From the IMG/VR virus record IMGVR_UViG_3300006001_000012: a stretch of DNA of 64,000 nt; one strand, written 5' to 3'. The translations under genes were made by a program, and so were the position numbers. Of the stretch, positions 23,401-49,145 are shown in pieces. Origin of the DNA: a virus. The first letter of the stretch is position 1. The number at the start of each line of letters is the position of its first letter. The notes below the pieces were generated by a model. It did not search any database. It saw only the letters and a program-made list of their open reading frames with translations, and was not told the origin of the DNA.

Positions 23401-26400
23401 AGACATCAATACTCCTTTAAACGCATTGGTGAGGCTGGAGACAGACATTAATTATGTCTTATTGGGAAGCAGCATGTATGTAGCGGGAAAGACCGTAAAC
23501 AGCACGACACAGCCTTCTGCGATAGAAGATTTTATTTATCGCTTGATGACAGAACCTGAATTGGCAGAATCCCTGACAAATGCAGAATACTCCAAAGACA
23601 ATTATATATTGAAATTTTTACAGGACGAAGATTTTGTAGAAGCTCTTAAAAAACTTCCCATTCCTTCTTTGGAAGCTCTGCGCGAAAAAGGAAATGACAA
23701 TAATACGGACTCGGAATACGGAAAACTCTCTGCCGCAAAGCACATGCAGTTGATGTTGAATTTATTTATGCACACGCATGTAAATAAAATCGGATCCCCA
23801 GAAGGCATGGGAGGTCTTAAATTCAGAATGGTGCAACAGCCTTTGATCACGGGAAGCAATAAAGGCAAAACGGTGTATATGCCCGTGCCCGTCATTGACT
23901 TTGCCAAAGAACATATTGAGTTATTGAGCACGGGAGGTTTATATATAGACGATGCAATCATAGAATTTTTGACAAAACAAATATTTGACACGGAACTAAA
24001 TCGCATTATACAATCTTATCAAAGAGAGACTCCTTCTTCTTACGCAAATTATGACAATGCGTCCAAACTCTTTTACAACGTATCTTCTTTTAATCATATA
24101 GAGATTGAAATATCGGATGAAAACAGAACTAAAAAAATGATGAACATCCATGAAATTCTTCATGAAGGAGCAGGAGTATTAAAAGCAGAAGTGAGAGACG
24201 AATTAGTTAAAGCCGCGCATATAAAATTAAAAAAATACATAGAAAACGAAACCAATGAAAAAATCAGAAAAAATGAAAAAGGAGAAACAGAAGGACAGTT
24301 GGTAGATAACGGATTTTTTAATCCTGATCCCGAATCAGAATATCCCATACAAGGATTGAATACGGGATATATGGGAAGAAACAATCTCAGTCATTTAGAG
24401 ACCTCTTATGACAAGATGCGTTTTGTAATGGCTGATTTTGTCATCAATAACCTTTTGACTCAGGTTTCCAAACAACAAATTATATTCAGCGACGTGGCTT
24501 TTTATTCTAAAGCCAAGTTGCCTTATACGACAACAAACGGAATTACGGAAATAGACGCGACAAAAGTAAGAAGTCAGGAATTTTTGAATGAGGTTACGGA
24601 GGCTTCCGCTTATACTTTGCAGAAGAGAGCGGTCAATGCCGCAGCTTCTGGAAACAAACTGGCGGACTGCGACAATCCCGCAAGCGAATATTCCAAAGAA
24701 TTTACGCATATCCTGCTTCAAGACGAAATAAGCGAATCTTCTATCTTGGGAAATCTTGCCGAAACCTATAAAGGAAGAGAACTTACGCAAGAAGAAAAAT
24801 CAGCATTGCAGAGATTAAATGAATTAAAAAACTCTTTAACTGAAAACGAGAAGATAACAAGAGAAGGAAATACAGAAGAAGTCAAAGCCGCAGAACAACA
24901 AATTAAAAAAATCAAATCTGAAAGAGACGGTCTGATAGAAACTTATTTTGCGGACATCAAACCTTATTTCAGAATTACGGGCACGGATTCTCAGCAGTAT
25001 GTAACTTGGCAGTTCTATCTGGAAATGCTTGAAAGAAAAGGAGAAATTTCTTCGCAAGAGAGACAACTTTTAATCAGAAAAATAGAATCGGGAGTCGATA
25101 ACGAACTTACGCAAGAACAGTTGGAAAGCATCATGAAGTTTACCATGAACCCCGCGAAACCCGTGTATTCGCAGAATGTCATGGAAAACGGAGTGCTCAG
25201 ACCCGTGTACATCAAATCTTCTTTCTTTCCTCTGCTTCCTCAGCTTACCAAAGGAATGAAGCTGGATAAATTGAGATTGACTATGGAAAAATTAGAAAGC
25301 GAGAAAAGTCAGTCAGGTTCTTATGTGCCCGCAATGGCTTCTTATCAATCCAGTTTTAAGGTAGGAGCTAAGAGCACCGCAGTACGCATGGAAGACGTCT
25401 ATAACTATGACATAGAAAACAATGATACTTCTGGACTTGCGGGATTAACCGAGTCTCTGAGCACTCTTCCCATGAGCGGATTTAAAATTCAACAGGAGTC
25501 TCCTTCCAAAGAAAAACATGCCTACGAAAGCGAAAGAGACGCACGCATCAGAATGGCTAGTCAGTTCTTCAAAATATTGATGGGCAATTTTATCAGCAAC
25601 GGAAAAACCCGATCTTTCCCTAATCTTTTTGACAAAGAACATTTAAAGGAATTGGGCATTGAATACAATGAATATTTAACGGGAGAAGAATTAAGCAAAC
25701 TTCAAGACCATATTTATTTTAAATACTATGACCTTTTGAGAGCAGACTTAGAAGAAAGCATGGGAATGAAAATTGACAGTAATTTTGACAGTTTAGACGA
25801 AAACCAACAAAAAGCGGTCATTGAAAAATTGCAAACTATCATGCTTGAGGAAATCAGGGTCAGAGGGTATCCTGATTATTTAAAAGACTCGGTACAATTA
25901 ATGGAGGATAAATACGGAAACTTGACCATGACGTTTCCTCCCATATTTGACACCAACAGAAACAAGTTTGAAAATTTGTTAAAAGCATTTATCGCCAACA
26001 GACTCATCAACAATAAACTTCCTGGCAACTCTCACGTATTGGGTTCTTCCGAAGGATTTGTTCCCTTTGACAATATAAGAAAGGAAAGAGAAAAATTGAT
26101 AGAACAAAATAAACTTGACAAAAATCTCAGAACGCCTGAAATCAAGGGTATAGATTTGCATAGAATCGTGCGAGACAGCGATTATATTCTCAGTACGATA
26201 AAGAAAATTGAATCGCAAAACAAAATATCCAGTAAGGACAATGATGCCATACAAATATTAAAAAGCAATTTGGCAACGCTTGAAAATATTAAAAAACAAA
26301 CGGCAAAAAAATCTTCTTTTGAAGGAATGTCGGCAGAGCAAAAATCCAAGATAGTATGGCTCAATGAAGATCATAACGGAGAACTTCGTTCTTCTTATGT

Positions 26401-29400
26401 AGAATACGACAACGGGGAAAAGAAGATAGTAAAGTCTCAGATTTTAATTAAATCTCATTTTAAATACAGAGACAGAGAAACGGGGGAATATAAATATGTG
26501 GATTTGACAAGCGATAAATATTCATATATAGGATATAACGGGAACAGGGTGCTCATGTTAGACAAAATAGATCCGCAACTTCTGGAAATGTTTACGTTCC
26601 GTATTCCCACCTCTGCGCATCAATCTGGAGCAATTGCGGAGATTGCGGGTTTCTTGCCTCCCGATTCCGAAGATCTGATAGTGGCTTCCAAAGAATATCT
26701 GGTGCAAATAGGAGAGGACTATGATTTTGACAAAAGGTATGTGTATAAGTCTCACTATTTCGTGGACAGAGAAGGAAACGTCAAAAAGATGAGTCGCGAC
26801 AATGTCAGAAAAGCCAGAGAAAATCCTAAACTTGCAAAAGAGATACAAATTACCGAAGATGTGATAGCAAATTTGCATGATGAAGTATTTGACATAAAAA
26901 GAGAACAAAATTCAGAAGCGGTAGAAAAAGCCGACAGATTAATGCGATCGGTATATCGTTATTTTGAAAAACAACGCATGAATGATAATTTGACTCCAGA
27001 AAAAAGAAAAGAATTAAAAGAATTTTATGACAGCGCGGAAAGCGATGTCAATGCCATTGATCAGGAACTCAAAGACGACATCAACAGAAGGATAAAAGAA
27101 ATACGAACAAAAGAGTTAGATGCCGAAAAACGCATTGAAAGATTAAAAGATTTGATGTTTGAAATAATGCGGAAAAAAAATGCGAGAACGGAAAAAATGC
27201 TTCTTGAAAATTCATTGATCGATTTCTATAAATCCGTATTCCTGACCACAGACGAAACGGTGCAGAGAAACATCATGAAATCTTTGAATACGGATGCGGC
27301 AGACGAAACAAGCCGTCTGATACATCAGAAAACGTCTCAAAAGAAAAATCCCAATATGAGCATGTTCTCCGATAATTTTCAAAGAGAACTTTTATTGAGC
27401 GGAGGGGCTTCTCAGTCAGGAGTAGGGATTTATTCCAATGCCATCGTATTTGAATCCCAATTGCAAAAACTGGGAGAAGAAGATAAATTGGTACTGTTTG
27501 CAGAAACAAATGAATTAAAAGAAAATACGGGAGAAGCCGACACTTTAAATATAGGAGGATTGATATTTGGAGGAGTATTGGGAAATAACGTGGAAACCAT
27601 AGACGGAGAAAGAAATATATCCGATGCACATGCGGAAAATCAGAATAATGCGGTAGATGACGTAAATAAACAGAACATGGGCAAAAGGCATGAGAACTCT
27701 TATACCATGCCTGTGTACGCGCTTATGGCGCATATGGGATTTGACATGTCAGAAGACGTAATCAATACCATGATGTCCGATAAAAACGGAAAGACCATAA
27801 AGAAGAAAATGCACATTCCTTCTCTGCTCATGTCTCAGCCTATCATTAAAGAATACGTGAAATTGATGGAACAAAGAAAAGGGTCGGGTTCAAGAGCTAA
27901 AGCAGAGGAAGAAACAGTGCTTCAATTATTAAAGAAATACGGAGTAATATTCCCCGAAGAGGGACCGGGAAGAGATTTTAAACCCAGATATTTCTTAGAA
28001 GATAAAACTGCAATCAAAGAATCTTACAGAGAACTGACGGGTCAAGTATTGTTTGACATGCTGGATGAAAACACGGCTATGAAATATCCGAGTCAGCAAA
28101 TGGCGGCATTGCAGTTGTTTTTTGAATTGGCGGACAAAGCCGCTCAGCTTTCTAAAATGCAACAATTGGTGAACGTGATGGGTTCTCGAAAATTAGGCAT
28201 CTCTTATTTTGAGACGCTTCAAAAAATAAATCAGCTTAACAAATTAGCCGAAGATAAAATAAACAGGAAATCCGTCATATACAATGAAACTAAATTAATA
28301 GGAGAAGTATCTGATGTGCCTGTGCCCAATGACAAAGGATATGTAAAGTTGGGAGAGTATTGGTGGAAACCTACTACTATTGAAGGCAAACTTTTGATTG
28401 ATACCCTCAGAACGGAGAATATGCTTATGCCTATACTGTTTCCTTACAATTCACATGCTTTGACTACGGTGGTAGATACCATATTGAAAAATCAGGATAT
28501 TGATCCCGCAGACGATTCTAATTACGCGATGGAAAGAAGATATGAGATTATGTCCGAATTTGTAAAATATATCAATGTTAATGCCGTATCTAAAAACAGC
28601 AATCCGAATTTTGAAAAAATGAGATTGTTCTTCAATGACAAGATAACGGGAAATAAATCGTTGGGAATGGTGCTTGCGGAATTAAGAAGAGACAAACCTG
28701 AATTGGCAAACAATGTATTTTTAAACGGATTAGAAACTACCTTCGATCCCAGAAATAACGGATATGCCATATGGAGAACCAGAGCAGACAGCGAATTTGA
28801 TCAGAATGACGAACAGAAAGCATTTTCCGATATGCTCAGAGACGACAGAGAAATAGGAGAAGTAAACGGAAGAATGATGACTATGTCGGATTTAGCGCAT
28901 GACTTAGTGCTTTATTCCTTTATGGCAGATGACAGAAACGGAGCGGTAGGATTTAAAAAGATAGTGCCCATGTCTTATCTTAATTCAACGGGCATTGCGG
29001 AAAACATGAGAACTGCTTTTGCGGAAATATCATATAACTCAGACAAATCCGATATAGACGCGCAACAATTTATCACGCAATATTTTCAACAAAATATAGA
29101 TAAATTATACAAAAGAAATTTTCAAACTTTAGAAGATTTTAAAACATACAGACGCAAAATAAAAGAGATAAACGAAAACAAAAGACCTTCGTTGGATTAT
29201 GCGATTATCAATAAACAATTATATAAAGTAACAGATACAGTTACGGGACTGGAAGAAATTCCTATATTAAGACATAACGGACTATTTAATCAATATAATG
29301 CGAATACAGAAATTCAGGAACAGGTAACCAATGTCAGAAAGATAGCAGAAACTCCGAAATATAAATTATCGGGCGAAGGAACTCCCATGCTCGGCGTTAT

Positions 29401-30526
29401 GAAAAACAATAAAGCGGTAAGCTATATAGACGCAAAGAAAGTAGATGACAGAATTAATAAGTTTACTACTATGGATGAATTGATAGGAAACATTAAATAT
29501 GAAGAACTGAGCGAACAGGAAAAAATAATATATAATCATATAAAACCTTATTTAAACCAAGTACCCATAGAATTTCAAAAGCATCTCAGAAACGGTTCTT
29601 TGGGAGCTTATAACCCTAAAACCAATGTAATAGTACTCAATGCGGATGCGTATCAAATATTGGCAAACAGGTATCAGGATTTAGAAATTGTTAAAAAGAG
29701 ATTCAGAGAACTGATATTTGAAGAAGCCTTACATTCCATTACCGTAAATCAATTAAAAGAATTTATCGAAGTAGATAAGGATACCAGACAAATTACGGGA
29801 TTTAAAACAAAACCAGAAAAACTTCCTTCTTTTGTAACTACTATCGTAGCCATGTTTGAAATGGCAAGAACGGCAGTACCTCACGATAAAAATGATTTAT
29901 CCACTTATTATTCTAAAGACGTATTTGAATTTATAGCGGGCATGTTTGTATCCGAAGATTATCGCAAAAGATTAGAGGACAGCCGTTCTGGTTTCTTAGA
30001 ACAATTTGCAAGAGGGATAGTAAGAGTATTCCAACATCTGTTCAACATTGAATCAAAGAAAGAAACAGGACAAACGAAACCAGAAGAAAAATATAAAAAT
30101 GAGTTTTATGCAGCCGTAAAACAATTAATTGTCAAAAGCAATATCCAGGACATAAAAAGGACTGCTCCCGACATAAAAGACAATTATGAAGTCGATAAAA
30201 CCAATGAAGTCGATAAAACTCCTGATATTGCGGGAAATCAGGAAACACGGTCAGAAACAGAAGCAGAAATAGAAACGCCCGATGAAGCCATAGACAATGA
30301 CATATTAGGCATATTTAAAGGTATTCCCAGCGCAAGTTCTGGAATTGAAAAAACACAAGACGATTTTGATATGGACGATACCGTAAAAGACATTAATATA
30401 TTGGAAGATGCTCCCGAAATGAAATCTGACAACGATGAAATTCATGAAAGTCCCATGAAAGAAGAAAGAGTAAGAGAATTGACAATGGAAGATTTAGAAG
30501 AAATGCCCGTACTAAAATGCTCATAA
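11441..30526 (+). CDS. Giant multidomain virion RNA polymerase (crAss-like two-barrel RNAP) with DprA-like and zincin-like domains
   Basis: Uninterrupted 6361-aa ORF. FRIPTSAHQS is followed by the metal-binding DxDxD motif in QIGEDYDFDK (26717-26731). TDSQQY and KPVY...YIKSS segments lie upstream. Long coiled coils and hydrophobic segments occur near the N-terminus. Confidence 0.85.
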   Translation: MGRLGDDIKLGFLENLRSAEEMDPEMAAKDYATYESLRRRLLAEGIDIRTYKKPAEEEYEDATETTETPVSPPSVVSTPSVVSTPSVVSTPSSVIADTVRTPMPPDLPPARKEDGTELTQQEKEQWYKENETAGGKKLTKEEKEKQKKIKEIEKTPAYLIYANNVRKAAIEEQLKETALYKEKIKGLEPNEIMASGELEDLVLKQKVEPELPDRYREVIRRIHSIEASSKALNNQNTAEKDYDEAKGFLSNAGNLIAYKWYDWTTRDNTTSGMSPKVAKEYRELLKERDKLLKPVAHDHMEKFNAKKDPMVAYQKQPFYKVEGNYKYRTTRIGTIVKTEEYYRVPKSEVASQEEANSLSKEALEKYRKKYDDNEILIEKIDDASQRLKDYINDEGLYAGFMSQKKQWLTGGLYGLKELSESAGIAYKARKKGWDSLTDYEKEVLEIEQLKQGVQHLDMGKNNFMYALGEGFAVSIPLIQQILLTAGTGTSLAAGVSAISGLGRRIAQQSLRNAAEASIRTLFRSITIGAANITRSQGWRMLGLRGIEKGIINPLVNIGTQTALSPFSYSRAAERYIGPLQYVEDENGKGQILLTENMRLSFLQQGKAELIKLENQFDEVEKIKDPKEREEAERKLHLRYLELRKQIDSIYDPYGKDPEQVIKEVGIGAALAYGWGEGFKELFSERFVGQWASALTRPAGRFLGKGIGKAWDMVSNPTLRKVFNGKALGTPADALDEMNMLAKKFGKARNGAFSKNAFFHIKLGNLWHGLLPEMAEEIAVSLTPSIGAGWSSKEYEEQLKELRTQEFYVNVLSQTALMGGTMIGASYAHHLGNYYLSKSYNEDYKQLKAEKRMLRDLFQAIDQGVENDELVKKIMMSVNDATYFTQDYQEQISKLRAENTKASHEQANALEQAQFYNHAITAMKTGQLKAFKRSLERQIEQRNESTETEETKRTMESVVKAMQTIEYLQEIQEKYEEHPNQGALINLEINRLHNKRNIEELNKNIDDKTKQAELIAAIEAFKIAEQAKWDSPDNVDENGNRLNLDKDGKQIEYEYKDYVLNFADLSANDMQFLSSVMNAGLDANNIISSMMFRDMNQGMINEYQMQIAAGANEKVIKQVRAQELKEQKEQIDNSKDIKALQQIVDSLIITDDKLKALAQAKINKLNGIAQITGSADTAWKAVHRNSNQGLVDPEAKGLMDEIGKNKNQPKPEQPKHGSPKNPSGRQTQTQQEETPQTPSKPYKSSKARQLMNRLNDQPSKRADVERLEAEVASHRIVFGNETKEERKIREAKLNEYEKQLNVARAILTGINNEIEKILQERIKEIKERIAQERYIRKSLIVNKKQKVKYERDLAKLNNKKKLTPTEEKQKKQLTEDIKSLNKSINEDIKRLNELEILNRHDKQRITQNQLTKTNTKFKGKDFKKLVMGGIFWGYRHRFNASTLSGGSVDQLNDLIETIEEVLKKMDAHKRKKGGKENGTRQEQRKNMLQWLEAAKHNLQIHEEILEESIVLTNTADIVETEEDQKKIVTLKNKIEASERLLKIKEEKRDNFGEADTKKKKIQLEAINTDINTYETNLEGYRKELAELEFEVENELRRQRGEELLEREIPQAKEEKQEQEQEQEENELSESEKQDKLESLKKELERLDAEIDHLSKQGTELKEKRIELESKIALESRSEKATDEAERAKEIEEIEKLKKEIDDLYDKEWESSRQRADIEKEIQDLEEGELEKPEKSKDRLINEARNRLFTKNRDLRSNKRTLQRLHRTGGAEKTIKYFEGEIEKDEAEIIAIEKELKDLENRTQSVPQQENQQENQQEQNQEQNQETPETEQEREQNQEEQKRQKEREKKQSEIDSLRKEYEELDAKEEVNRNEIKKLEEEKKKLSEIENKDERKKKEEKLQKTIDELKEKNKDILFNIVSIENKLQELHKENFKDEAGQSGNPLIDDAKYRLMVKKEELKRIKRYLQRAQKRGDGIAKTFEEQIKDTVAEITAIEKELQELGAVAEKQNQQETPPVTQQTQPAPKAAPPATTREGKIKELEKLDDQIAELEIQYNLAQGEADGADNSLNFYDRQENKGTKELHSEKIKKLEKLKEEKEKIANDLANQLHSLQEKRDALEEELYTEEFGAEEAPFKEHDDFKTNELQKELQKSREMIKNLRKKLARNLREAKKIKERFDKQDDIKQKAVEANTANHYYTQSYISPEEHAKQRQETEERIAKLEKRIAEIEKTLNISKETSKTETTKTEEQKQPVQLDPKTEAKKKKYEEELAALQAQLNKEKDPRKIAKLKIAIKDTTSLIDGLGKKVPVVQPQLEREHEEPIPENNEEDNEETPADETNTDDTPVKELNPDEFYLSPQTEGLSPEDEALRNKTLPVVDKLKEVAELEGKTAPTFDDYIKYMQMQYLKLRGKAGLEEMETFFMSFAKAWKLAGMTFKEGEIMAAHKNNFANILAEKAKIQQQQTQQQTQQTSNPQMVNAQNQATNTKAQQTTKELVNPNKPGDQTAKGQVKKAEEDKRSKSEEIKLPVYGEVTERTGTKKFNLVQRAWQVVKAIGNHFIFDSNFASIAEREAIDNPQSLTARQYDDDDYIMPSGYSDVTNLTLIDRNEQAQTPLIIDKKGVTWGEAKAKAQQIYQGDLYQQWFDQFVPMRVVYAGKMNRTRNEQGEEVQGEDAISIVRNHEFYRDQHESVAAGGEEAARKTRALRRTVGRTEEKRLPIRFKNRSYGTWRSLADQYETVTDANGGQKLQRKFPIENIGEKGVSVELVLVRRFKDGTVKYETADKKPFEKALLTSLRPGLNAGNKSVETGESNVSTVIMVHAYTDSAGKQYYVPITVMTQQQEDGKFRLQEEVLNTVKYSVLAGMMARVQKMANIEAENNEALRKKNPNMKTENLPSTAKNMMESLIKLFEEKYGIKKSQLDAIAKSIKDGGLSINTEDGLTEYIESFCKNPVEGQEHAVRAMVKYFTDELNNIQNALIKNKDSKQIDPIINSGLEAFSNMFNKVMGEKGSFRDKFKVRFNLKSALNKNKVTVIDKDGNVKPDKKSYNDTMLDFYYTEIALTPIDTIDGEKKLAVDVSPHIELDYTEDGMEEAPSETPPAQGQQQGFKMQTPDPIPETEDAPEKEEKEEKEEKKEEKEEKKEEKKEEKKEEKKEEKKEEKAPVAESKHTTNARWMGLAHLAWSRESINNLIQKIAQEGMTLQQFFELGTKGKRAVWRSKFKLTDDRIKDLEKINSKAVLKKNEAMSERLEKEGVEIISITDAKSYPQSLIEKLGKAKAPTILYIKGNKAILQKGAITIVGSRDVSPRGLNFARHVAGLVVKAGKAVVSGFADGTDKAAAIAALNNGGQSIAVLPQGILTYGKDKDFDFDSHVTKDGNLVMVSEFPPEKKRTRDMVMQRNATVYALGEEVFVGESVKKGDTWKGALEWLKRGSQMRIHVLKPATEKEKTANQDLIDIKEGVIAVDPEMNKLPVHTARQITREEELQLKQEEENRKKQEQKTKTEQELEKLAQEVNTKFIKDGKTPQEAAALTDKMVAGQRNAITEEEKAEREKKKKEELKNNPKQVSGLTIEEQQILLNSIKHKIALELAKLFPANFNKENIKRIIQEQIQAVLNKGIADISKISGALGSINTKMAKDNVQTQKDLLEKWQSALEEYSKLESELLSYWSKFTAVDLSTEEETGNEEMGDKNEAYGKSSFEKNIMLSFSNQMKLLFYGIVSTHPGTGRARVNSMNIEQYVSPEEAYAKVLDVTTSVDSNWTAILTEFNKRYNTVKRKAIDEEGNEYEIGNEIYKELLTRVKTLQLSQNKRLRNEMLYKMSAKKLTMHKLVIDFGKRATDKKGKFIQFNGKPVYKSAGIQVLDENSNKSLIKIKRKIVNSFVENFGINDNGKTILNKQFVQERLAEIETILDTKIKTDPVMIKTLLDKIGFGNISELAIDQFISNPNGNKDFQLYGDAGLITLLNKNLRKLMEKAKNNPKFEINNEDNTINILKDINTPLNALVRLETDINYVLLGSSMYVAGKTVNSTTQPSAIEDFIYRLMTEPELAESLTNAEYSKDNYILKFLQDEDFVEALKKLPIPSLEALREKGNDNNTDSEYGKLSAAKHMQLMLNLFMHTHVNKIGSPEGMGGLKFRMVQQPLITGSNKGKTVYMPVPVIDFAKEHIELLSTGGLYIDDAIIEFLTKQIFDTELNRIIQSYQRETPSSYANYDNASKLFYNVSSFNHIEIEISDENRTKKMMNIHEILHEGAGVLKAEVRDELVKAAHIKLKKYIENETNEKIRKNEKGETEGQLVDNGFFNPDPESEYPIQGLNTGYMGRNNLSHLETSYDKMRFVMADFVINNLLTQVSKQQIIFSDVAFYSKAKLPYTTTNGITEIDATKVRSQEFLNEVTEASAYTLQKRAVNAAASGNKLADCDNPASEYSKEFTHILLQDEISESSILGNLAETYKGRELTQEEKSALQRLNELKNSLTENEKITREGNTEEVKAAEQQIKKIKSERDGLIETYFADIKPYFRITGTDSQQYVTWQFYLEMLERKGEISSQERQLLIRKIESGVDNELTQEQLESIMKFTMNPAKPVYSQNVMENGVLRPVYIKSSFFPLLPQLTKGMKLDKLRLTMEKLESEKSQSGSYVPAMASYQSSFKVGAKSTAVRMEDVYNYDIENNDTSGLAGLTESLSTLPMSGFKIQQESPSKEKHAYESERDARIRMASQFFKILMGNFISNGKTRSFPNLFDKEHLKELGIEYNEYLTGEELSKLQDHIYFKYYDLLRADLEESMGMKIDSNFDSLDENQQKAVIEKLQTIMLEEIRVRGYPDYLKDSVQLMEDKYGNLTMTFPPIFDTNRNKFENLLKAFIANRLINNKLPGNSHVLGSSEGFVPFDNIRKEREKLIEQNKLDKNLRTPEIKGIDLHRIVRDSDYILSTIKKIESQNKISSKDNDAIQILKSNLATLENIKKQTAKKSSFEGMSAEQKSKIVWLNEDHNGELRSSYVEYDNGEKKIVKSQILIKSHFKYRDRETGEYKYVDLTSDKYSYIGYNGNRVLMLDKIDPQLLEMFTFRIPTSAHQSGAIAEIAGFLPPDSEDLIVASKEYLVQIGEDYDFDKRYVYKSHYFVDREGNVKKMSRDNVRKARENPKLAKEIQITEDVIANLHDEVFDIKREQNSEAVEKADRLMRSVYRYFEKQRMNDNLTPEKRKELKEFYDSAESDVNAIDQELKDDINRRIKEIRTKELDAEKRIERLKDLMFEIMRKKNARTEKMLLENSLIDFYKSVFLTTDETVQRNIMKSLNTDAADETSRLIHQKTSQKKNPNMSMFSDNFQRELLLSGGASQSGVGIYSNAIVFESQLQKLGEEDKLVLFAETNELKENTGEADTLNIGGLIFGGVLGNNVETIDGERNISDAHAENQNNAVDDVNKQNMGKRHENSYTMPVYALMAHMGFDMSEDVINTMMSDKNGKTIKKKMHIPSLLMSQPIIKEYVKLMEQRKGSGSRAKAEEETVLQLLKKYGVIFPEEGPGRDFKPRYFLEDKTAIKESYRELTGQVLFDMLDENTAMKYPSQQMAALQLFFELADKAAQLSKMQQLVNVMGSRKLGISYFETLQKINQLNKLAEDKINRKSVIYNETKLIGEVSDVPVPNDKGYVKLGEYWWKPTTIEGKLLIDTLRTENMLMPILFPYNSHALTTVVDTILKNQDIDPADDSNYAMERRYEIMSEFVKYINVNAVSKNSNPNFEKMRLFFNDKITGNKSLGMVLAELRRDKPELANNVFLNGLETTFDPRNNGYAIWRTRADSEFDQNDEQKAFSDMLRDDREIGEVNGRMMTMSDLAHDLVLYSFMADDRNGAVGFKKIVPMSYLNSTGIAENMRTAFAEISYNSDKSDIDAQQFITQYFQQNIDKLYKRNFQTLEDFKTYRRKIKEINENKRPSLDYAIINKQLYKVTDTVTGLEEIPILRHNGLFNQYNANTEIQEQVTNVRKIAETPKYKLSGEGTPMLGVMKNNKAVSYIDAKKVDDRINKFTTMDELIGNIKYEELSEQEKIIYNHIKPYLNQVPIEFQKHLRNGSLGAYNPKTNVIVLNADAYQILANRYQDLEIVKKRFRELIFEEALHSITVNQLKEFIEVDKDTRQITGFKTKPEKLPSFVTTIVAMFEMARTAVPHDKNDLSTYYSKDVFEFIAGMFVSEDYRKRLEDSRSGFLEQFARGIVRVFQHLFNIESKKETGQTKPEEKYKNEFYAAVKQLIVKSNIQDIKRTAPDIKDNYEVDKTNEVDKTPDIAGNQETRSETEAEIETPDEAIDNDILGIFKGIPSASSGIEKTQDDFDMDDTVKDINILEDAPEMKSDNDEIHESPMKEERVRELTMEDLEEMPVLKCS
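11655..11715 (+). repeat. 18-bp tandem repeat (about 3.4 copies, PSVVST) in the vRNAP N-terminus
   Basis: ccttcggtagtttctact occurs three times perfectly, plus a partial copy. Confidence 0.95.
20795..20909 (+). repeat. Purine-rich EKE/EKKE low-complexity tandem repeat (linker before the DprA domain)
   Basis: 9-nt and 12-nt units encode EKEEKEEKEEKKEEKEEKKEEKKEEKKEEKKEEKKEEK. Confidence 0.9.
20939..21820 (+). other. DprA/Smf (SLOG superfamily) domain embedded in the vRNAP ORF
   Basis: YPQSL...APTILYIKGN...ITIVGSR...VVSGFADGTDKAAAIAAL...SIAVLPQG...VSEFPP...QRN..VYAL...VGES..KGDTW.GA matches the canonical DprA motif series. Confidence 0.9.
29560..29950 (+). other. Zincin-like metallopeptidase (MPTase-type) domain with variant EEALH motif in the vRNAP ORF
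   Basis: LGAYNPKTNVIVLN...LIFEEALHSIT (29720-29734)...DVFEFIAGMF shows zincin architecture, with the first His of HExxH replaced by Glu. Confidence 0.65.
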
Positions 30527-42129: not shown

Positions 42130-42515
42130 TTTTTTATTTTATTTATTAGTTGTTTAAAATCTTTAAAAGTCATGAACACCAATTGATCATACTCCGTTTT
42201 CTTTTTCCCTTTAGGAGATTGTTTATGGAGTATTCCTATCAAAAGAGCTTTTCTTTCCATAGAGTCTTTAGAAAATATTTTTTCTGTTTCTTCTTTGGTG
42301 TACTGCAAAACAGAGGAGGCATTGAACCCCCTCTGCAAGCCCGCTTTAATCTGCACGTTAAAGGGCAGATTAATCAAATCAATTCCCGCGTTGTCATGTT
42401 GCTTGCTTCCAAATCTGGAAGTTACGCATCTGTCAAAGCCCATTTTTCTAAACTCTCCCGCATAAATTTGTTCTGCGCGATGTCCCTTTTTTCTGTTCTG
42501 CTTTCCGTTAGTCAT
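42120..42515 (-). CDS. Holliday-junction resolvase-like PD-(D/E)xK endonuclease
   Basis: RKKGHRAEQ...DNAGIDL...NVQIK in a small basic protein. Confidence 0.7.
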   Translation of the reverse strand: MTNGKQNRKKGHRAEQIYAGEFRKMGFDRCVTSRFGSKQHDNAGIDLINLPFNVQIKAGLQRGFNASSVLQYTKEETEKIFSKDSMERKALLIGILHKQSPKGKKKTEYDQLVFMTFKDFKQLINKIKKWD

Positions 42516-43287
42516 GCGACTCGTTGTTTGTTCTCGTAAATTTAATCAACTTTTTCAAGTCGAGTTTATTTATGTATTCTTCTTTTTCCTGTTCGAGACG
42601 GAAAGACTGACTTAACATAGAGACGTCTTTTTCGGGAAAAAGAATATCTTCTAACTTTTTCGCAGTGCAATGCACCAAATCTACGCGGTGTTTTGCGCAT
42701 ATCGAAATGTAAAAAGAATTAAGAATTTTGAACAAATGTTTATATGCGGGAACAGAAATCAATTCGTATGACACATACAGTCTGTAATACTGAGGCTCGT
42801 TGTATCTGTCATAGGTGCGAAGCATCGGTTTTTTCTCTGCCATAGAAAACGAAAAATTGCAAGTAGTCATCGCCAACAATATTTCTTCCTGCGCGGAAAG
42901 AATCAATCCTGGATATACCGAAATCGTAAAAGGACTTACCTTGCTTTTGTAAACCAATGTACGAGGCGTAGAATATCCCGTAATGCTTTCATAAAGTTTG
43001 TCTTTATGAAACTTTATGGAATTTTCCAACGGGGTGCGAGGTTTGAAATAGATTGCAAAATTCTCATAAGTCATCAAATGCGTGTTTTTGCTTACGTGAT
43101 ACAACATATCTATATATAAAGGATGATACTTTCTTTCATGCTCTTCCTTTATGAGAAATGAACCTGCTTTGCTCGTATTTACCTGCATAAACCAACTCAT
43201 TTCCTGAATATTTCCTTCATGGTCGAGACCCAATACATTTCTCAGTTCAAAAGGAATGTCATATTTATATTTTATCGGATCTGTCAT
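42508..43287 (-). CDS. Hypothetical protein translationally coupled to the E1 gene
   Basis: 259-aa ORF whose ATG overlaps the TGA of the ThiF-family gene. Confidence 0.65.
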   Translation of the reverse strand: MTDPIKYKYDIPFELRNVLGLDHEGNIQEMSWFMQVNTSKAGSFLIKEEHERKYHPLYIDMLYHVSKNTHLMTYENFAIYFKPRTPLENSIKFHKDKLYESITGYSTPRTLVYKSKVSPFTISVYPGLILSAQEEILLAMTTCNFSFSMAEKKPMLRTYDRYNEPQYYRLYVSYELISVPAYKHLFKILNSFYISICAKHRVDLVHCTAKKLEDILFPEKDVSMLSQSFRLEQEKEEYINKLDLKKLIKFTRTNNESHD

Positions 43288-43979
43288 AACTCGGAAGTTA
43301 AATTCATCGGAAGAAAATATTCATAAAAGAAAGGCACATTCCTGATTTTCTGTTTCGCAATCATATTGCTTATATGATTGGTAAAGAAACCTGTCATAAG
43401 TCCTCCGATTACGGCAGCTATGTGAGAAGTCTGTCTCATAGTGCAAGGCGCATCCTCTACTTCTGAATCCTCGAACAAATATTCCTGATCATATTGTTCT
43501 ATGGTATTCTTTGTTACGCAGAAGATTTGCAATTGCTCCATCAAAAGCCTTCCGTCTATAAAGATAGGTTCTATTCCCGTATCCTCGCGTATAAACTGAT
43601 ACGATCTTTTCCATACTTCAAACATATCTCTTCTCGCGGTCATGTTGTCAAAAGCAGAAAAGCAAAAAGGACAGGTAGCGGTGCTTTGAGTCAATTTTAC
43701 GGCATACTCCGTGATGTCCACATTGGCAAAATTCCTTATCATGTAACGGAGCGCGGTAGTCTTATGACGGGTAACGTCATTTATAGTATAGAGCTGACCT
43801 CCCAGATTATGCAGTTCTACATGGTCTGGGTCATATACTACTATTTCAAATCCCGCTCTTGCCAAAAATAAAGCAAGCCAGCTTCCTATTCCTCCCGCGC
43901 CTCCTATTACCGCTTTATGTTTGCCTCCGTCTTTGCTGAACCAGGGGGCATCTTTAAATCTTTCGCTTATGGTTGTCAT
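43284..43979 (-). CDS. E1-like ThiF/MoeB-family adenylating enzyme
   Basis: RF near the N-terminus, GAGGIGS, DPDHVELHNLGGQLY, K, SAFDN..AR, FIDGR, and a candidate catalytic Cys179 in EDAPCT (43443-43445). Confidence 0.92.
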   Translation of the reverse strand: MTTISERFKDAPWFSKDGGKHKAVIGGAGGIGSWLALFLARAGFEIVVYDPDHVELHNLGGQLYTINDVTRHKTTALRYMIRNFANVDITEYAVKLTQSTATCPFCFSAFDNMTARRDMFEVWKRSYQFIREDTGIEPIFIDGRLLMEQLQIFCVTKNTIEQYDQEYLFEDSEVEDAPCTMRQTSHIAAVIGGLMTGFFTNHISNMIAKQKIRNVPFFYEYFLPMNLTSEL

Positions 43980-45207
43980 GTTTTTTATTGTTAAAATTAA
44001 TTGCGCCTAATACTTTAGCGATAGTTTCTGCTATCGGAAACATATCTTTTAAATTTTCTAAATGATTGATACACTCTCCGAGCACAAATCTTTTCTTTTC
44101 TTTTTCGCTCAGAGATACTCCTTTTCTCATAATGACCTGATCTCCGAAATGCAGATTATACAATTCTGTAAAATCATTTTTGTCGATCTCGATATAATAA
44201 GGTTCAGATTCTCCTGCTATAATGATATGATCCTGCTCTAAATCTCTGAGCATAGAGGTCAGATAATAACAAGTGGGAGAATCTTCATCCGATAGAAGCT
44301 GTATTAAAAATTCTTCTATCAGCACATCAATCTCGGTATCTTTGATTTCTTTCTTTTTCTTTTCTCCGAGATGAGGTTTTAATGCGTTTTCTATCTCATT
44401 CAGTTGTTTTAACTGATCTGCGGCAGGATTGCGATATGACCCGTCTGGAAATCTGCTTCCCGTAGGCATATACACATTTGAAGAACCGTATAAACTCTGC
44501 GCAGAAGCATGAAAAGAAGGAACTTTTGCCGCTTCGATAATGCTTTCTACATTGTCCAGAAATAATTTGTCAAGCGCGGGAACGATAGGTTCTGTAAATA
44601 TAGAACAGTCATGCACTATCATTTCCTCAGAAACAAAATTGACGTTTCTTTTAAAAGTCTTATACTTCTTTCCTTCTTCGTCTGTGGCAAAGAAATCTTC
44701 TTCTGCTGTTTTTGTCATTATGGATTTGAAAGCTATTTTAGCGGTCATTTCCAATTTGTTGTTCACGATCAAAGAAAGATAAAAGCTATGCGCTCCGCAA
44801 TTGTCTTTTAATTCAGACACGTCAGTTCCGCTAAAGAAAACAGGCATGGTGTTATGCGAATGAATAAGACCTATTCTCCATTTCTTGCGAATGGTATCGG
44901 GTCTTTCATTGAAATAATCAATCATCTTGTCATCGTATCCCGAACCGTCTCTTTTAGGTTCGTTAAATTGATATTCCGTATAGGCTTGACTCCCTTTGTT
45001 CATGGGAATAATGTCCTCTGCGGTCAATTCCAATTCTTTGGGATTTTTGATAGTTCCTTTTACGGAATAGAGAAGTATGCCCGACCATTCTACTTCTCTG
45101 ATTACTTTACAGAGATAGTTTATCTTCTCATGTACCAACGCAGGAATGAAGAGTTTTACCACTTCTTGTTGCGTACCTTCGATTTTAGTTTCCAATAAGT
45201 CTTTCAT
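43954..45207 (-). CDS. JAB/MPN+ (JAMM) metalloprotease with a C-terminal extension
   Basis: EVEWSG followed by IHSHNTMPVFFSGTD (44821-44862) gives an intact E...HxH-x7-S-x2-D motif. Confidence 0.9.
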   Translation of the reverse strand: MKDLLETKIEGTQQEVVKLFIPALVHEKINYLCKVIREVEWSGILLYSVKGTIKNPKELELTAEDIIPMNKGSQAYTEYQFNEPKRDGSGYDDKMIDYFNERPDTIRKKWRIGLIHSHNTMPVFFSGTDVSELKDNCGAHSFYLSLIVNNKLEMTAKIAFKSIMTKTAEEDFFATDEEGKKYKTFKRNVNFVSEEMIVHDCSIFTEPIVPALDKLFLDNVESIIEAAKVPSFHASAQSLYGSSNVYMPTGSRFPDGSYRNPAADQLKQLNEIENALKPHLGEKKKKEIKDTEIDVLIEEFLIQLLSDEDSPTCYYLTSMLRDLEQDHIIIAGESEPYYIEIDKNDFTELYNLHFGDQVIMRKGVSLSEKEKKRFVLGECINHLENLKDMFPIAETIAKVLGAINFNNKKHDNHKRKI

Positions 45208-46408
45208 TTCGTTGTTTAATTAATTCTATAAATAACATTTTTTCCATTTCTTGAATGGCATACCCTTTAAATCCAGGATCGATTTCAAACCCAGAAGTGT
45301 CGTACAGATTATCTGACTCATTTGGTTTTTCAATGGTCAGCGTTACTTTCTTGTCTCTGAACCACCAATGATCGTCATCTACTTTCATCTGATGAACGAG
45401 AGTTTCTCTGTAACTCATATTTCTTGTGCCGTTTTCAAACCAATACTTTGTATTTGCTCCCGCCACATAATAAATTCCTTCCGCATAATCTAAATCGCAG
45501 TCAAGACCGTTTCTCAGAAATTTGTCAAACAGTTCGTCATTTTTAATTCCGAACCGATCTCCTTTATAAACAAAATTCAAATCTGGACATCCCCATTGCG
45601 AATAACACAGATAGATATATTTCCACGTTCTGTCAAAATTTCCCGTGATTTTTCCGTCTGCGAGATTTTTGGGAAGAGTCAGTTTATCCATCTGCACATA
45701 AGGCACTCCTTCCAATGATTCCCATTTGAGATAATCTTCCAATGACAGCAAAAGAAGCTGAAAAAGTTCTTCTTTATATCCGTTTACTCTGATTGCCCTG
45801 AGCAATTTCTGCAAAGGCGTTTCATTGCCCAGACAAAAAGTATGTCCAATGTCAAAAGGTTTATGATTGGTATATTTTGCCGTATGCAAATGCGAATGAG
45901 AATAATTCAAAAAGAACTCGTCATAATTAAGATACGCTCTGCATCCTCCGATTTGAGTATCGAAATAAAATCTGGGTTTCTTATGTATTCCTTCCTGACA
46001 AGAATTGTCGGTGCCTTCGCTTTCCATGCTAGAAGCATTAGACTCTATATGAAGAAATACATAAAGTTCTTTTATCAGATGTTTTTCTTTGAACGCATTG
46101 ACAATTTTAATTTTTGGATAATACAATGCCACATACATTCCAAATCTGTCCAATTCCCAATTCTCCGCAAAAGGATAATAATAGAAATCCCAATTATTTC
46201 CCATCGTAGTATTAAGTATATCAATCATGGAATCAATTTGCTTGGCAAATACATAGGCTTCTTTAGGTCTTACTGCGGAAAGTCTGTCTGCTTTTGCCAT
46301 CTCATAGATATATTGTGTTTTTCTGGTTTTTCCGTGTATGCAGTCCTGCAACAATTTCTTGTAAGGACTGCCTGCTCTGCAATATTTTATAGGTTCGTGC
46401 AATAACAT
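45185..46408 (-). CDS. Prokaryotic E2/UBC-like conjugating enzyme
   Basis: Beta-meander, then YSHSHL...FCLG (Cys192, 45833-45835), then helices ending YLKWES. This follows the H-P-[NH]...C-L-G pattern of E2 folds. The gene lies between the Ubl and JAB genes. Confidence 0.7.
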   Translation of the reverse strand: MLLHEPIKYCRAGSPYKKLLQDCIHGKTRKTQYIYEMAKADRLSAVRPKEAYVFAKQIDSMIDILNTTMGNNWDFYYYPFAENWELDRFGMYVALYYPKIKIVNAFKEKHLIKELYVFLHIESNASSMESEGTDNSCQEGIHKKPRFYFDTQIGGCRAYLNYDEFFLNYSHSHLHTAKYTNHKPFDIGHTFCLGNETPLQKLLRAIRVNGYKEELFQLLLLSLEDYLKWESLEGVPYVQMDKLTLPKNLADGKITGNFDRTWKYIYLCYSQWGCPDLNFVYKGDRFGIKNDELFDKFLRNGLDCDLDYAEGIYYVAGANTKYWFENGTRNMSYRETLVHQMKVDDDHWWFRDKKVTLTIEKPNESDNLYDTSGFEIDPGFKGYAIQEMEKMLFIELIKQRNERLIGN

Positions 46409-46444
46409 AATTTATTTGTTTATTGTAATAATTAAATAAAACAA

Positions 46445-46472
46445 AAGAAGCAAGGAATTACCCTTGCTTCTT
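46445..46472 (-). terminator. Intrinsic terminator between the Ubl gene and the E2 gene
   Basis: Perfect 11-bp stem aagaagcaagg-N6-ccttgcttctt, followed on the - strand by TTGTTTTATTT. It lies 21 nt after the Ubl stop codon. Confidence 0.8.
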
Positions 46473-46493
46473 CGTTTCAAAAATCAAATCAGA

Positions 46494-47351
46494 CTACACG
46501 CTGTCTTTTTCTAATTCTTCATACCCTTTTTGAAGAGCGGCAAGTTTAGGATCTTCAGGCGCGTCAAAACCTTCTTCTTCTACCTCACTGTCTTCATCAT
46601 CGTCCTCATCATCCTCATTGCTCTCGTTCCTTACGTCATCTTCATCATAATCCGATTCATGATCTTCTCCGTCTCCTTCTTCGTCATCTTCATCGTCAGG
46701 ATCAGTTTGCGCATTGAAACCTTTTTCAAGTTCGCTTACTACTGTTTTCACATCCTCAGGCAAGTCATATGCCTGTTTTACGTCAGGTGCAGTGCAATTC
46801 AGAGGAGTTTCTGTTTTTGCATTTTCCAATTCTTTGGAGAAATGGAGACGCACAAACTTTTCAAAATTCGTGAAAGCCTGAATCAAGAGCACATAGAATT
46901 TGAGCGCTTCTTGAATGAAGTAATCCTGTTTTTGAGCATTGAATTCAATGTCTCCGTAGCGGGCTTCAAAAGCAATGATTTCCTGACGGATAGTTTCCGC
47001 AGGAAGTTCAGCGAGGGATTTTCCCCCGTTTGCTTTTTTTATCGCTTCTTCTAGTTGAACAGAACGCTTTGCATAAAATGCAAGGTCTCGGTGAGACATG
47101 TGGTTCAATGCGTCTATTCCCAATCCCGATTTGGTTTTCACGGGGCGGAGATAAAGCACAAAATCTCCTGCAGGAAGTTTGGCATTGGGATGCGTAAAGG
47201 AAGTTTTCCCCACGCTTTCCGTAGGATTGAGATTATCCAACGCATAATGCTCTTGTACCAGAGGTTTCAATTCGCTCCATACTGTAGCAGCCGTTTTGAT
47301 TTCTATGTATGTTCCGTTAGTGGAAAATACGGTTATTTTTCTTTCGTTCAT
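46494..47351 (-). CDS. Ubiquitin-like (beta-grasp) domain fused to a helical/acidic passenger
   Basis: Residues 1-76 show a beta-beta-alpha-beta-beta pattern (RKITVFST, YIEIKT, TVWSELKPLV, ...LPAGDFVLYLRP) ending in VKTKSG. A helical region and a D/E-rich tail follow. The gene is adjacent to E2, JAB and E1. Confidence 0.75.
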   Translation of the reverse strand: MNERKITVFSTNGTYIEIKTAATVWSELKPLVQEHYALDNLNPTESVGKTSFTHPNAKLPAGDFVLYLRPVKTKSGLGIDALNHMSHRDLAFYAKRSVQLEEAIKKANGGKSLAELPAETIRQEIIAFEARYGDIEFNAQKQDYFIQEALKFYVLLIQAFTNFEKFVRLHFSKELENAKTETPLNCTAPDVKQAYDLPEDVKTVVSELEKGFNAQTDPDDEDDEEGDGEDHESDYDEDDVRNESNEDDEDDDEDSEVEEEGFDAPEDPKLAALQKGYEELEKDSV

Positions 47352-47381: not shown

Positions 47382-48095
47382 TTACCATTTAATAAAACAA
47401 GACTTTGTTCTTTTCAGAATTTCATTTGCCTTGTAAAAGTGTTTGCATCCCTGAAATTTAATTCTGGAAGAGGGATGCTCCGCTTCCAGAATATAATTGA
47501 ACTCGCTGTTCATGGGTATTTCCTTAACCTGTTCTATGTCATGTTTGACTTCTATATGAGGTCTGTCTTTTATGTGGTTTTTAATCCACATAGAATACTG
47601 TCCCCATATCATCCATATACAAGGCGTATGACGACTTATCATAGACACTGTTTCTCTCATAAAATTCCTCCATTGAGCAGGATGACCTATTCCGTCTCTT
47701 ACTTCGGAAGTAAGCGAAAGATTCAACAACAGAACGCCTTGCTTGGCAAGATATTCCATTGAAGTTTTATCAGGATCATCGCTTAAAGGAACTTCATTTG
47801 ATTTGATTTCGCCTTGAATGACATTTAACGCAAAAGCTCTTCGCTTATTGACGCTTGGATTTGTTATTCCGTAGGCTAATCCGTTATTCATGTCCGTGAT
47901 ATAAGGATTATATCCCGTGATGACGACTTTGATTTCGCTCAGAGGCACTTGAAAAGCATTGAATACGCATTTCTTTTCAGGTCTTATTCCGCGCACTATC
48001 CAATCTTCAAAAAGGTTCGACAAAGGATATACAGAAAGGTGTTTGAACAGAAAGCCCCAGCTTTCGTCAAACTGTTTTTGAAAAATGTCTTCCAT
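47382..48095 (-). CDS. ung: Uracil-DNA glycosylase, family-1 scaffold with variant motif A
   Basis: VFNAF, KVVITGYNPY, GLAY, LAKQGVLLLN.SLT, H...W, WG, HPS and FQGCKHFYKAN. Confidence 0.88.
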   Translation of the reverse strand: MEDIFQKQFDESWGFLFKHLSVYPLSNLFEDWIVRGIRPEKKCVFNAFQVPLSEIKVVITGYNPYITDMNNGLAYGITNPSVNKRRAFALNVIQGEIKSNEVPLSDDPDKTSMEYLAKQGVLLLNLSLTSEVRDGIGHPAQWRNFMRETVSMISRHTPCIWMIWGQYSMWIKNHIKDRPHIEVKHDIEQVKEIPMNSEFNYILEAEHPSSRIKFQGCKHFYKANEILKRTKSCFIKW

Positions 48096-48119
48096 CTCTT
48101 AATTTGATTTTTGATTTCT

Positions 48120-49145
48120 TTACCTTAGATTTTCATGAAGCAAATTTCCCAAAAAATGTTCTCCTCTCAGTCTCCTTACGTCTGCAGGGTCTTTCTCCAA
48201 TCCCATAGGGATAGAATAAGCCATTGCTTTGTTTCCGAACTCTTTATTGATGATTCGGGTTAATTTGTCGGAAGCTGATATTCCAGGCAAATCATTGTCG
48301 AAAAATACAGTAATTCTCTTAGCTCTGTCGCAAAGACATTTGAGTTTCTCTTTGCACGGAAACATGCCTTCGTTCTGAAACCAGACGGATTGGTATCCGC
48401 AGTTCCGCAGTACTCGGCAATCTTTGTACGACTTTGAAATAATCAAATGCTCCACAGAAGCATCGAGGGTTTTTAAACCCCCGATGTCGTCTGCTTTGCA
48501 ATTTGTGATAAACTTGCCTTTTCCTTTTTGAAAGGGCGTATAAATCTTTTTTCTTTCCTGTTCAAAACCGCTCAGCGCATAACATGCTTTATAGGGACTG
48601 AATACCCATGTGCCTTTTTTGGCGGTGGTCATGTGCACCCGTTTTACGGGAAAGATTTCATCGTCATTCAAATTTTTGCTGCTGATTCCGTAAGGTTGCC
48701 AATACCTTCTGTCTCTTTGTTCAAATTCCCGCGTTTCGGTTCGGATTATAGTCTCCTGTATTTGTGCCCGCGCAATTGAACTCTGACGTTTTAACGGAAT
48801 CATCGTATCCTCATTGCCAGAAATAAAAAACTCATAAAGAGTCTGTATGGTATCTTGAAAATTGGAAGTGCCGAAGTAATGGCTTGCCGCGTTAAAACAA
48901 TCCATATGGGTTCTTCCTCCGCTTCCAAAATCAATAAACCACAGTTTCCCTTTATAATATTCAAACCAACATCCCGCATTTCGATCTTCTCTGAAAGGAG
49001 ATGTATAGAGTTTTCCGACATGAGGCTTCTCCTCAAAAACCAACTCAAAAATATCTTCTTCTGAAACATATTTGAGTATTTCGCTCTTGTCTAAATAGCC
49101 TCTCTCAATTCGGGCTATTTGCTTATAATCTAATTTGTAAGACAT
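48120..49145 (-). CDS. dnaG: DnaG-type primase (crAss-like)
   Basis: Degenerate Zn-binding region SPFREDRNAGC...DFG...DCF, and TOPRIM motifs IISKSYKD, FFDNDLPG and KDPAD. Confidence 0.8.
   Translation of the reverse strand: MSYKLDYKQIARIERGYLDKSEILKYVSEEDIFELVFEEKPHVGKLYTSPFREDRNAGCWFEYYKGKLWFIDFGSGGRTHMDCFNAASHYFGTSNFQDTIQTLYEFFISGNEDTMIPLKRQSSIARAQIQETIIRTETREFEQRDRRYWQPYGISSKNLNDDEIFPVKRVHMTTAKKGTWVFSPYKACYALSGFEQERKKIYTPFQKGKGKFITNCKADDIGGLKTLDASVEHLIISKSYKDCRVLRNCGYQSVWFQNEGMFPCKEKLKCLCDRAKRITVFFDNDLPGISASDKLTRIINKEFGNKAMAYSIPMGLEKDPADVRRLRGEHFLGNLLHENLR

Follow-up and report, generated by a model that had tools for sequence, protein, structure and literature searches.

In a virus that looks like a crAss-like phage, a ubiquitin-like (Ubl) domain is encoded as the N-terminal part of a longer precursor. 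The phage's own JAB peptidase likely cuts this precursor after Gly76, releasing a tag that would be activated by the E1 and E2-like proteins encoded beside it, and a second protein whose function is likely independent of it. The fusion, the conservation of the glycine, the synteny of the genes and the intact catalytic motifs can be read from the sequences of the window, by which we mean the whole stretch of 64,000 nucleotides that was analysed (IMG/VR virus record IMGVR_UViG_3300006001_000012), and of its homologues. Studies of bacterial Ubl conjugation have dealt with it as a defence against phages. The cascade proposed here belongs to phages themselves; it is found in the replication module of crAss001 (gp79-76) and DAC15, two gut phages in culture, and can be tested there directly. 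Should the passenger indeed be released, the precursor would be the counterpart, in a virus of prokaryotes, of the ubiquitin fusion precursors, and the passenger would be an unrecognised phage accessory protein.

The precursor and its glycine junction

The precursor ORF is located on the minus strand (47351-46494) and encodes 285 aa. As the first-pass annotation had read it, the Gly76 codon (47126-47124) is followed in frame by 209 aa. Two other public assemblies contain the entire stretch in a single contig, with two substitutions in one, a single substitution in the other, and no indels in either; the fusion of Ubl and passenger is therefore not an assembly error. Both assemblies are near-identical to the window DNA, and either may be close to its source. 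The assembly with two substitutions differs from the window at two bases inside the Ubl (47195-47198). A database variant of the Ubl carries F52L and T53A and is nearer to the family's Leu52.

The AlphaFold2 model of the precursor was built on 149 sequences. It gives a beta-grasp for residues 1-70 (pLDDT about 95), a less certain linker at 71-80, helices at 79-107, 118-180 (a long one), 199-214 and 268-284, and disorder at 223-258. The best Foldseek matches of the Ubl model in the PDB were to UBX, ubiquitin and SUMO, with an E-value of 3.9e-4 at best, TM-scores normalised by target of about 0.6-0.7 and a probability of 1.0, and the top viral matches of the precursor model were proteins of Fpv3 and crAss-like phages. 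From the model, the Foldseek matches and the conservation among homologues, residues 1-76 (47124..47351, minus strand), which end in R-P-V-K-T-K-S-G76, are predicted to have a ubiquitin-like beta-grasp fold. The predicted mature tag (aa 1-76, with Met) has a mass of 8,466 Da. What had been described as a short helical bundle after the glycine is indeed helical in the model, but it is more extensive than that description: the module at 79-130 runs into the long helix at 118-180, and the helices at 199-214 and 268-284 are added to these.

The precursor had no meaningful match in Pfam, NCBIfam or PADLOC, PDB sequence searches gave no significant match, and a word-index homologue search with residues 1-130 returned the query alone. 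An exhaustive search with residues 1-100 gave 418 matches, and the best 150 were analysed. Two of these (P0002 and P0003) are near-identical variants of the window protein from one run and were left out of all counts, which leaves 148 homologues. Among these best matches, Gly76 is kept in 146/148 and Lys74 in 144/148, and a Gly stands at the domain end in all 72 of the unique gut crAss-like homologues. It is a single Gly that closes the Ubl domain, not Gly-Gly. The residue that follows varies among the 148 homologues (Ala in 43, Leu in 23, Ile in 14, Gly in 14, and others); judged from the alignment, a nearly invariant Gly followed by free residues is what a processing site should look like. 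We therefore agree with the first-pass annotation, which had placed the junction of a precursor at Gly76 and asked whether this residue is conserved among homologues. Its codon (47124..47126, minus strand) marks the predicted site of cleavage and activation. Gly78, which had been named as an alternative cut site, is excluded, because a Gly at +2 is present in just 9 of the 148 homologues.

P0072 and P0085 are without a Gly at the aligned position. The ending is D-G-N in one, where the Gly may have shifted, and N-A-T in the other, whose tag may end in Ala. Directly upstream of its precursor gene, the closest relative of the window has a second Ubl-like ORF of 95 aa, without the K-S-G end (L003:2010-2297).

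The cassette and the phages that carry it

The E2-like protein (45185..46408, minus strand; 407 aa) has an invariant His173 and an invariant Cys192 in the alignment, and no meaningful match in Pfam, NCBIfam or PADLOC. A fold search with its model returned mostly UBC, UEV and RWD domains, with Z-scores of 4-6 (best 6.0) and BubB at rank 2 (Z 5.3); a UBC/UEV/RWD-type fold is predicted from these modest scores. The JAB gene (43954..45207, minus strand) encodes a JAB/JAMM metallopeptidase domain and a long C-terminal extension. Its match to Pfam Prok-JAB (E 8.8e-4) is below the cut-off; the motif E...HxH-x7-S-x2-D is present in the window protein, and the active-site residues E40, H116, H118, S126 and D129 are invariant in 13 sequences and kept at 90% or more in 24. 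The E1 (43284..43979, minus strand) is a minimal E1/ThiF-family adenylase of 231 aa with an invariant Cys179 and one ThiF domain, at residues 21-206 (Pfam, E 7e-17).

The gene order Ubl, E2-like, JAB, E1 is present in 22 of the 23 loci found via the E1; several of these loci are near-duplicates, and the 23rd is cut. The same order is present in 74 of 80 further gut-phage loci, the six misses being short loci. Phages crAss001 (gp79-gp76), DAC15 and FpV4 contain the same cassette with the same fused architecture, and the annotation of their orthologues goes no further than hypothetical, metalloprotease-domain and ThiF proteins. The E1 is closest to that of the Flavobacterium phages FpV4 and Fpv1 (55%), followed by Steigviridae (about 35%). 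In the window, giant ORFs are located on one strand and replication genes on the other. The gene order, the giant ORFs and the best relatives (FpV4 and Steigviridae) suggest a phage of Bacteroidota, and they are the grounds on which we call the window "crAss-like".

An ORF of 6,361 aa (11441-30526), with an inserted domain near aa 3230-3460, is probably a virion cargo or RNA-polymerase-type protein. In phage Fpv1 (KU599877, L021:4725-7017), the JAB gene is broken at the HxH by an insertion of ~1 kb that carries an ORF on the opposite strand; the gene is intact in FpV4. The insertion had no Rfam match and is possibly a mobile intron.

Genes for a uracil-DNA glycosylase-like protein and a primase (47382..49145, minus strand; Pfam and synteny) adjoin the cassette upstream, and we therefore place the cassette in the replication module. 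Between the Ubl and E2-like genes there is an intrinsic-terminator-like hairpin with a T run (46444..46473, minus strand; -17.9 kcal/mol). Of 24 loci, 20 have a terminator-like hairpin after the precursor gene; among the controls, such a hairpin is present in 41 of 869 tiled windows and in 6 of 480 shuffles. Judging from this hairpin, the precursor is probably made in excess over the cassette enzymes. An uncharacterised gene of 259 aa (42508-43287) follows the E1, and 5 of 23 related loci have a detectable homologue of it in the same place; it is a possible fifth component of the cassette.

The passenger and its possible roles

The mean top-residue frequency among the 148 homologues is 0.80 at residues 67-76, 0.23 at 77-86, 0.45 at 87-96, 0.37 at 97-130, and 0.14-0.15 beyond. 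It had been anticipated that conservation would drop sharply after K-[S/A]-G and that the passengers would be variable. The drop from 0.80 to 0.23 is as anticipated, but conservation rises again to 0.45 and 0.37 over the helical part, and the profile is therefore that of a linker followed by a shared helical module.

In the alignment and the AlphaFold2 model, this module (aa 79-130; 46962..47117, minus strand) is a diverged copy of a family motif (ELR...G-K-N-W/Y-T...L-R). A motif count of 122 of 148 homologues was made with a loose pattern and without a control. The module is common to the Flavobacterium-type and gut phages in the alignment. Substitution rates indicate that it is under purifying selection, with a dN/dS in the gut set of 0.19 for the passenger module and of 0.13 for the Ubl, over 1,529 pairs that are not independent and come from loci found partly with passenger peptides. 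The window's copy does not contain the N-W-T motif, and a profile made from the other homologues scores it at 2.2 bits, with 21 of 500 shuffles as high. Its pairwise scores are above 200 of 200 shuffles (28.1 versus 21.1 +/- 0.9 for shuffled sequences), and by these comparisons the copy is diverged. Models of the relatives' module show a weak resemblance to Rho-N/SAP/HeH in the ESM Atlas, with feature scores of 0.78-0.80 and TM 0.73-0.78 over 35 residues, below the bar for naming; Pfam calls no Rho-N/SAP/HeH domain in the homologues' passengers. Domains of the Rho-N/SAP/HeH type, in which an extended loop links two short helices, bind nucleic acid.

The long predicted helix continues from the module through aa 131-180 (46812..46961, minus strand) and is poorly conserved. 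Most homologues combine a small helical module with an acidic C-terminal helix, often with a Gly-aromatic pair at the end; 75 of 148 homologues have this pair among their last 8 residues, compared with 69 of 4,172 background windows. By the AlphaFold2 model and motif comparison, the window passenger has two such helices. The first (aa 198-214; 46710..46760, minus strand) contains E-L-E-K-G-F, like the family's usual C-terminal motif, with E-K-G-F at 209-212. The second is the C-terminal helix (aa 266-285; 46494..46556, minus strand, including the stop codon) and contains K-G-Y, as Q-K-G-Y near the end. In P0097, P0119, P0129, P0142 and L008:2994-3551, histone-H1-like Ala/Lys repeats directly follow the Gly and replace the helical module.

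The Ubl and the passenger are separate in one of the 78 loci scored. In phage cr106_1 (NC_055871), the Ubl ends in K-S-G-K-F-stop and is followed by an HNH endonuclease ORF and then by an ORF of 130 aa; this last ORF has its own start and aligns with the passengers from the module through the C-terminal helix. In L157, a close relative of cr106_1, the Ubl and the passenger are fused. A group I intron around the HNH ORF is unlikely: the non-coding bases flanking it number 1 and 15, and there was no Rfam intron match around it (E up to 1). For the same reasons, cr106_1 most probably represents a genuine split where the cut is predicted. L164 contains a full cassette with intact motifs and a Ubl of 77 aa that ends in K-S-G-K-stop, with no passenger within 10 kb of locus sequence. 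The Gly is still capped in both phages, by K-F in cr106_1 and by K in L164. As far as gene structure can tell, the two loci suggest that the passenger is an independent product and not a disposable cap. The occurrence of the passenger as its own gene in cr106_1 also supports the second, separable product that the first-pass annotation had put forward. The split and the passenger-free locus are ready-made controls.

One could also suppose that Gly76 is cut and that the passenger is a mere pro-segment, a cap or an aid to solubility or folding, with no job after release. The L164 cassette without a passenger is compatible with this, as are the tails of 10 residues or fewer in 3 of the 148 homologues and the low conservation of the distal tail. 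We consider a pro-segment unlikely: the caps in cr106_1 and L164 need no more than one or two residues, the split in cr106_1 has left the passenger with an ORF and a start of its own, and the module is common to Flavobacterium-type and gut phages and appears to be under purifying selection.

It is less probable still that the precursor is left uncut. The beta-grasp would then be an integral docking domain on an adaptor protein, as it is in UBX and Rad23-type proteins. UBX domains are among the best Foldseek rows, and long tails are the rule in the family, with a median of 145 residues after the Gly and at least 60 residues in 143/148 homologues. Against an integral domain stand the Gly at its end, which hardly varies while the residues after it do, the constant adjacency of the E1 and JAB, and the split and bare forms found in nature, in which the Ubl stops one or two residues past the Gly.

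We give just as little weight to the possibility that the Ubl is freed to act as a ThiS/Urm1-like sulfur or acyl carrier that modifies phage DNA or another small substrate, and not as a protein tag. The cassette is located among DNA-metabolism genes, and its E1 is minimal, with ThiF models as the best NCBIfam matches, all below the cut-off. Against a carrier, the cassette includes a protein of predicted UBC fold with invariant His and Cys, and a scan of 17 neighbours showed neither a rhodanese nor a thiamine-pathway gene.

The long D/E tract reported after Gly76 is present at aa 217-262 (46566..46703, minus strand), where 31 of 46 residues are D or E, with a pLDDT under 50 for 223-258. The best 30-residue D/E share is 0.67 in the window versus a family median of 0.40, and it is at least 0.6 in 5 of the 143 long tails. 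The two Gly-aromatic helices flank the tract, which suggests that it came with a local extension, and we propose that this lineage-specific tract is an elaboration of a flexible hinge. A function of the tract within the passenger as a DNA or RNA mimic or chaperone is very improbable: the passenger has a net charge of -39 and a pI of 4.1, and 125 of the 143 long tails are net negative, but the tract is disordered and a lineage extreme, and 17 of the 143 are net basic (H1-like repeats occur in some of these), so that mimicry by the tract cannot be the function of the family. The earlier idea of the passenger as a nucleic-acid mimic is accordingly poorly supported.

In the cr126_1 clade, the C-terminal domain of bL12 is inserted in the passenger hinge (Pfam 46.4 bits, above the cut-off); it is present in 9 of the 24 loci found with the cr126_1 protein (L104:2326-3252, L165-L173). 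We do not accept the bL12 domain as proof of a ribosomal role, because the insert is limited to this clade and such domains are described in PMC6375957 as variable, mobile inserts in phage proteins.

Our preferred reading is thus cleavage with release of two products. By the biochemistry of Bil and Bub, the phage's JAB would cut between Gly76 and Leu77, and the tag would be adenylated and passed via Cys179 of the E1 and Cys192 of the E2-like protein to a target lysine. By comparative genomics, the passenger would be an accessory protein that can be separated from the tag; it would be produced in a 1:1 ratio to the tag and would probably exceed the enzymes. The least certain step, which we put forward tentatively, is the role of the passenger: it would serve the replication module as an adaptor associated with nucleic acid, its Rho-N/SAP-like module lying at one end and a partner-docking acidic helix at the other. 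In the widest form of the proposal, crAss-like phages would run their own ubiquitination from a polyprotein. One abundant ORF would give a conjugatable tag and a conserved nucleic-acid-binding replication adaptor, with a hinge that serves as a landing site for acidic tracts, H1-like repeats and bL12, and the adaptor could be split off as its own gene. This scheme is possible, though we would lean against it as a whole.

Comparison with known systems

A literature search, with most subscription journals outside its reach, found no description of the cassette. In a term search, the main text of PMC7886860 and PMC10172136 did not mention it; supplements and a virion proteomics table could bear on this point.

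In type I Bub, the JAB protein BubCD cleaves BubAB, a Ubl-E2 pre-protein, after G229 (PMC11601596). Like the window, this system, as described there, has an N-terminal Ubl fused to a whole protein, a JAB cut after a conserved Gly (predicted in our case), a minimal E1, and a diverged E2 of the UBC fold. However, the Ubl of type I Bub is fused to the E2, whereas the passenger in the window is helical and disordered and the E2-like protein is encoded by the next gene. Similarly, the JAB and E1 are fused in type I Bub, whereas the JAB, E1 and E2 are separate ORFs in the window. Type I Bub uses Tyr/Ser oxyester chemistry without cysteines, in contrast to the invariant Cys179 of the E1 and Cys192 of the E2-like protein. 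Type I Bub also has BubE; no Pfam match to BubE (DUF6527) was seen among the 17 neighbours scanned, and the window cassette is phage-encoded and located in a replication module.

Bil (BilABCD) resembles the window in having four separate genes for Ubl, E2, JAB and E1 and in its cysteine chemistry (PMC10557695). Its JAB pre-processes the Ubl after a conserved Gly, with BilC trimming BilA after Gly97, and the same step would take place in the window. The caps differ in length: in type II BilA, up to nine residues follow the Gly (PMC10557695), whereas 209 follow it in the window, with a family median of 145. BilD has tandem IAD-AAD-CYS domains, whereas the window E1 has 231 aa and one ThiF domain. 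Bil is a bacterial defence system, whereas the window cassette is phage-borne. By analogy, the cassette would work like Bil and Bub, yet it belongs to neither.

For the TAPI-TAPK proteins of lambdoid and T1 phages, JAB release of a phage tail Ubl at a Gly has been proposed (PMC1779556). As in the window, a phage Ubl with a C-terminal domain is encoded beside a JAB peptidase. Unlike the window, the loci described in that paper have a tail-assembly context and a ThiS/MoaD-like Ubl, with no E1 or E2 listed in the neighbourhood. The tails of the orthologues in crAss001, DAC15 and FpV4 are without the long D/E tract.

In eukaryotes, ubiquitin is encoded as fusions to ribosomal proteins, Ub-eS31 and Ub-eL40. 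These fusions yield a tag and an unrelated protein 1:1 from one ORF, separated by a peptidase, and we propose the same logic for the window. A Ubl-eS30/FAU fusion is noted as well (PMC6375957). The eukaryotic passengers are ribosomal proteins, whereas the window passenger is not. The precursor logic is already known; the window adds to it a version that belongs to a phage and whose passenger is conserved, probably separable and not an enzyme.
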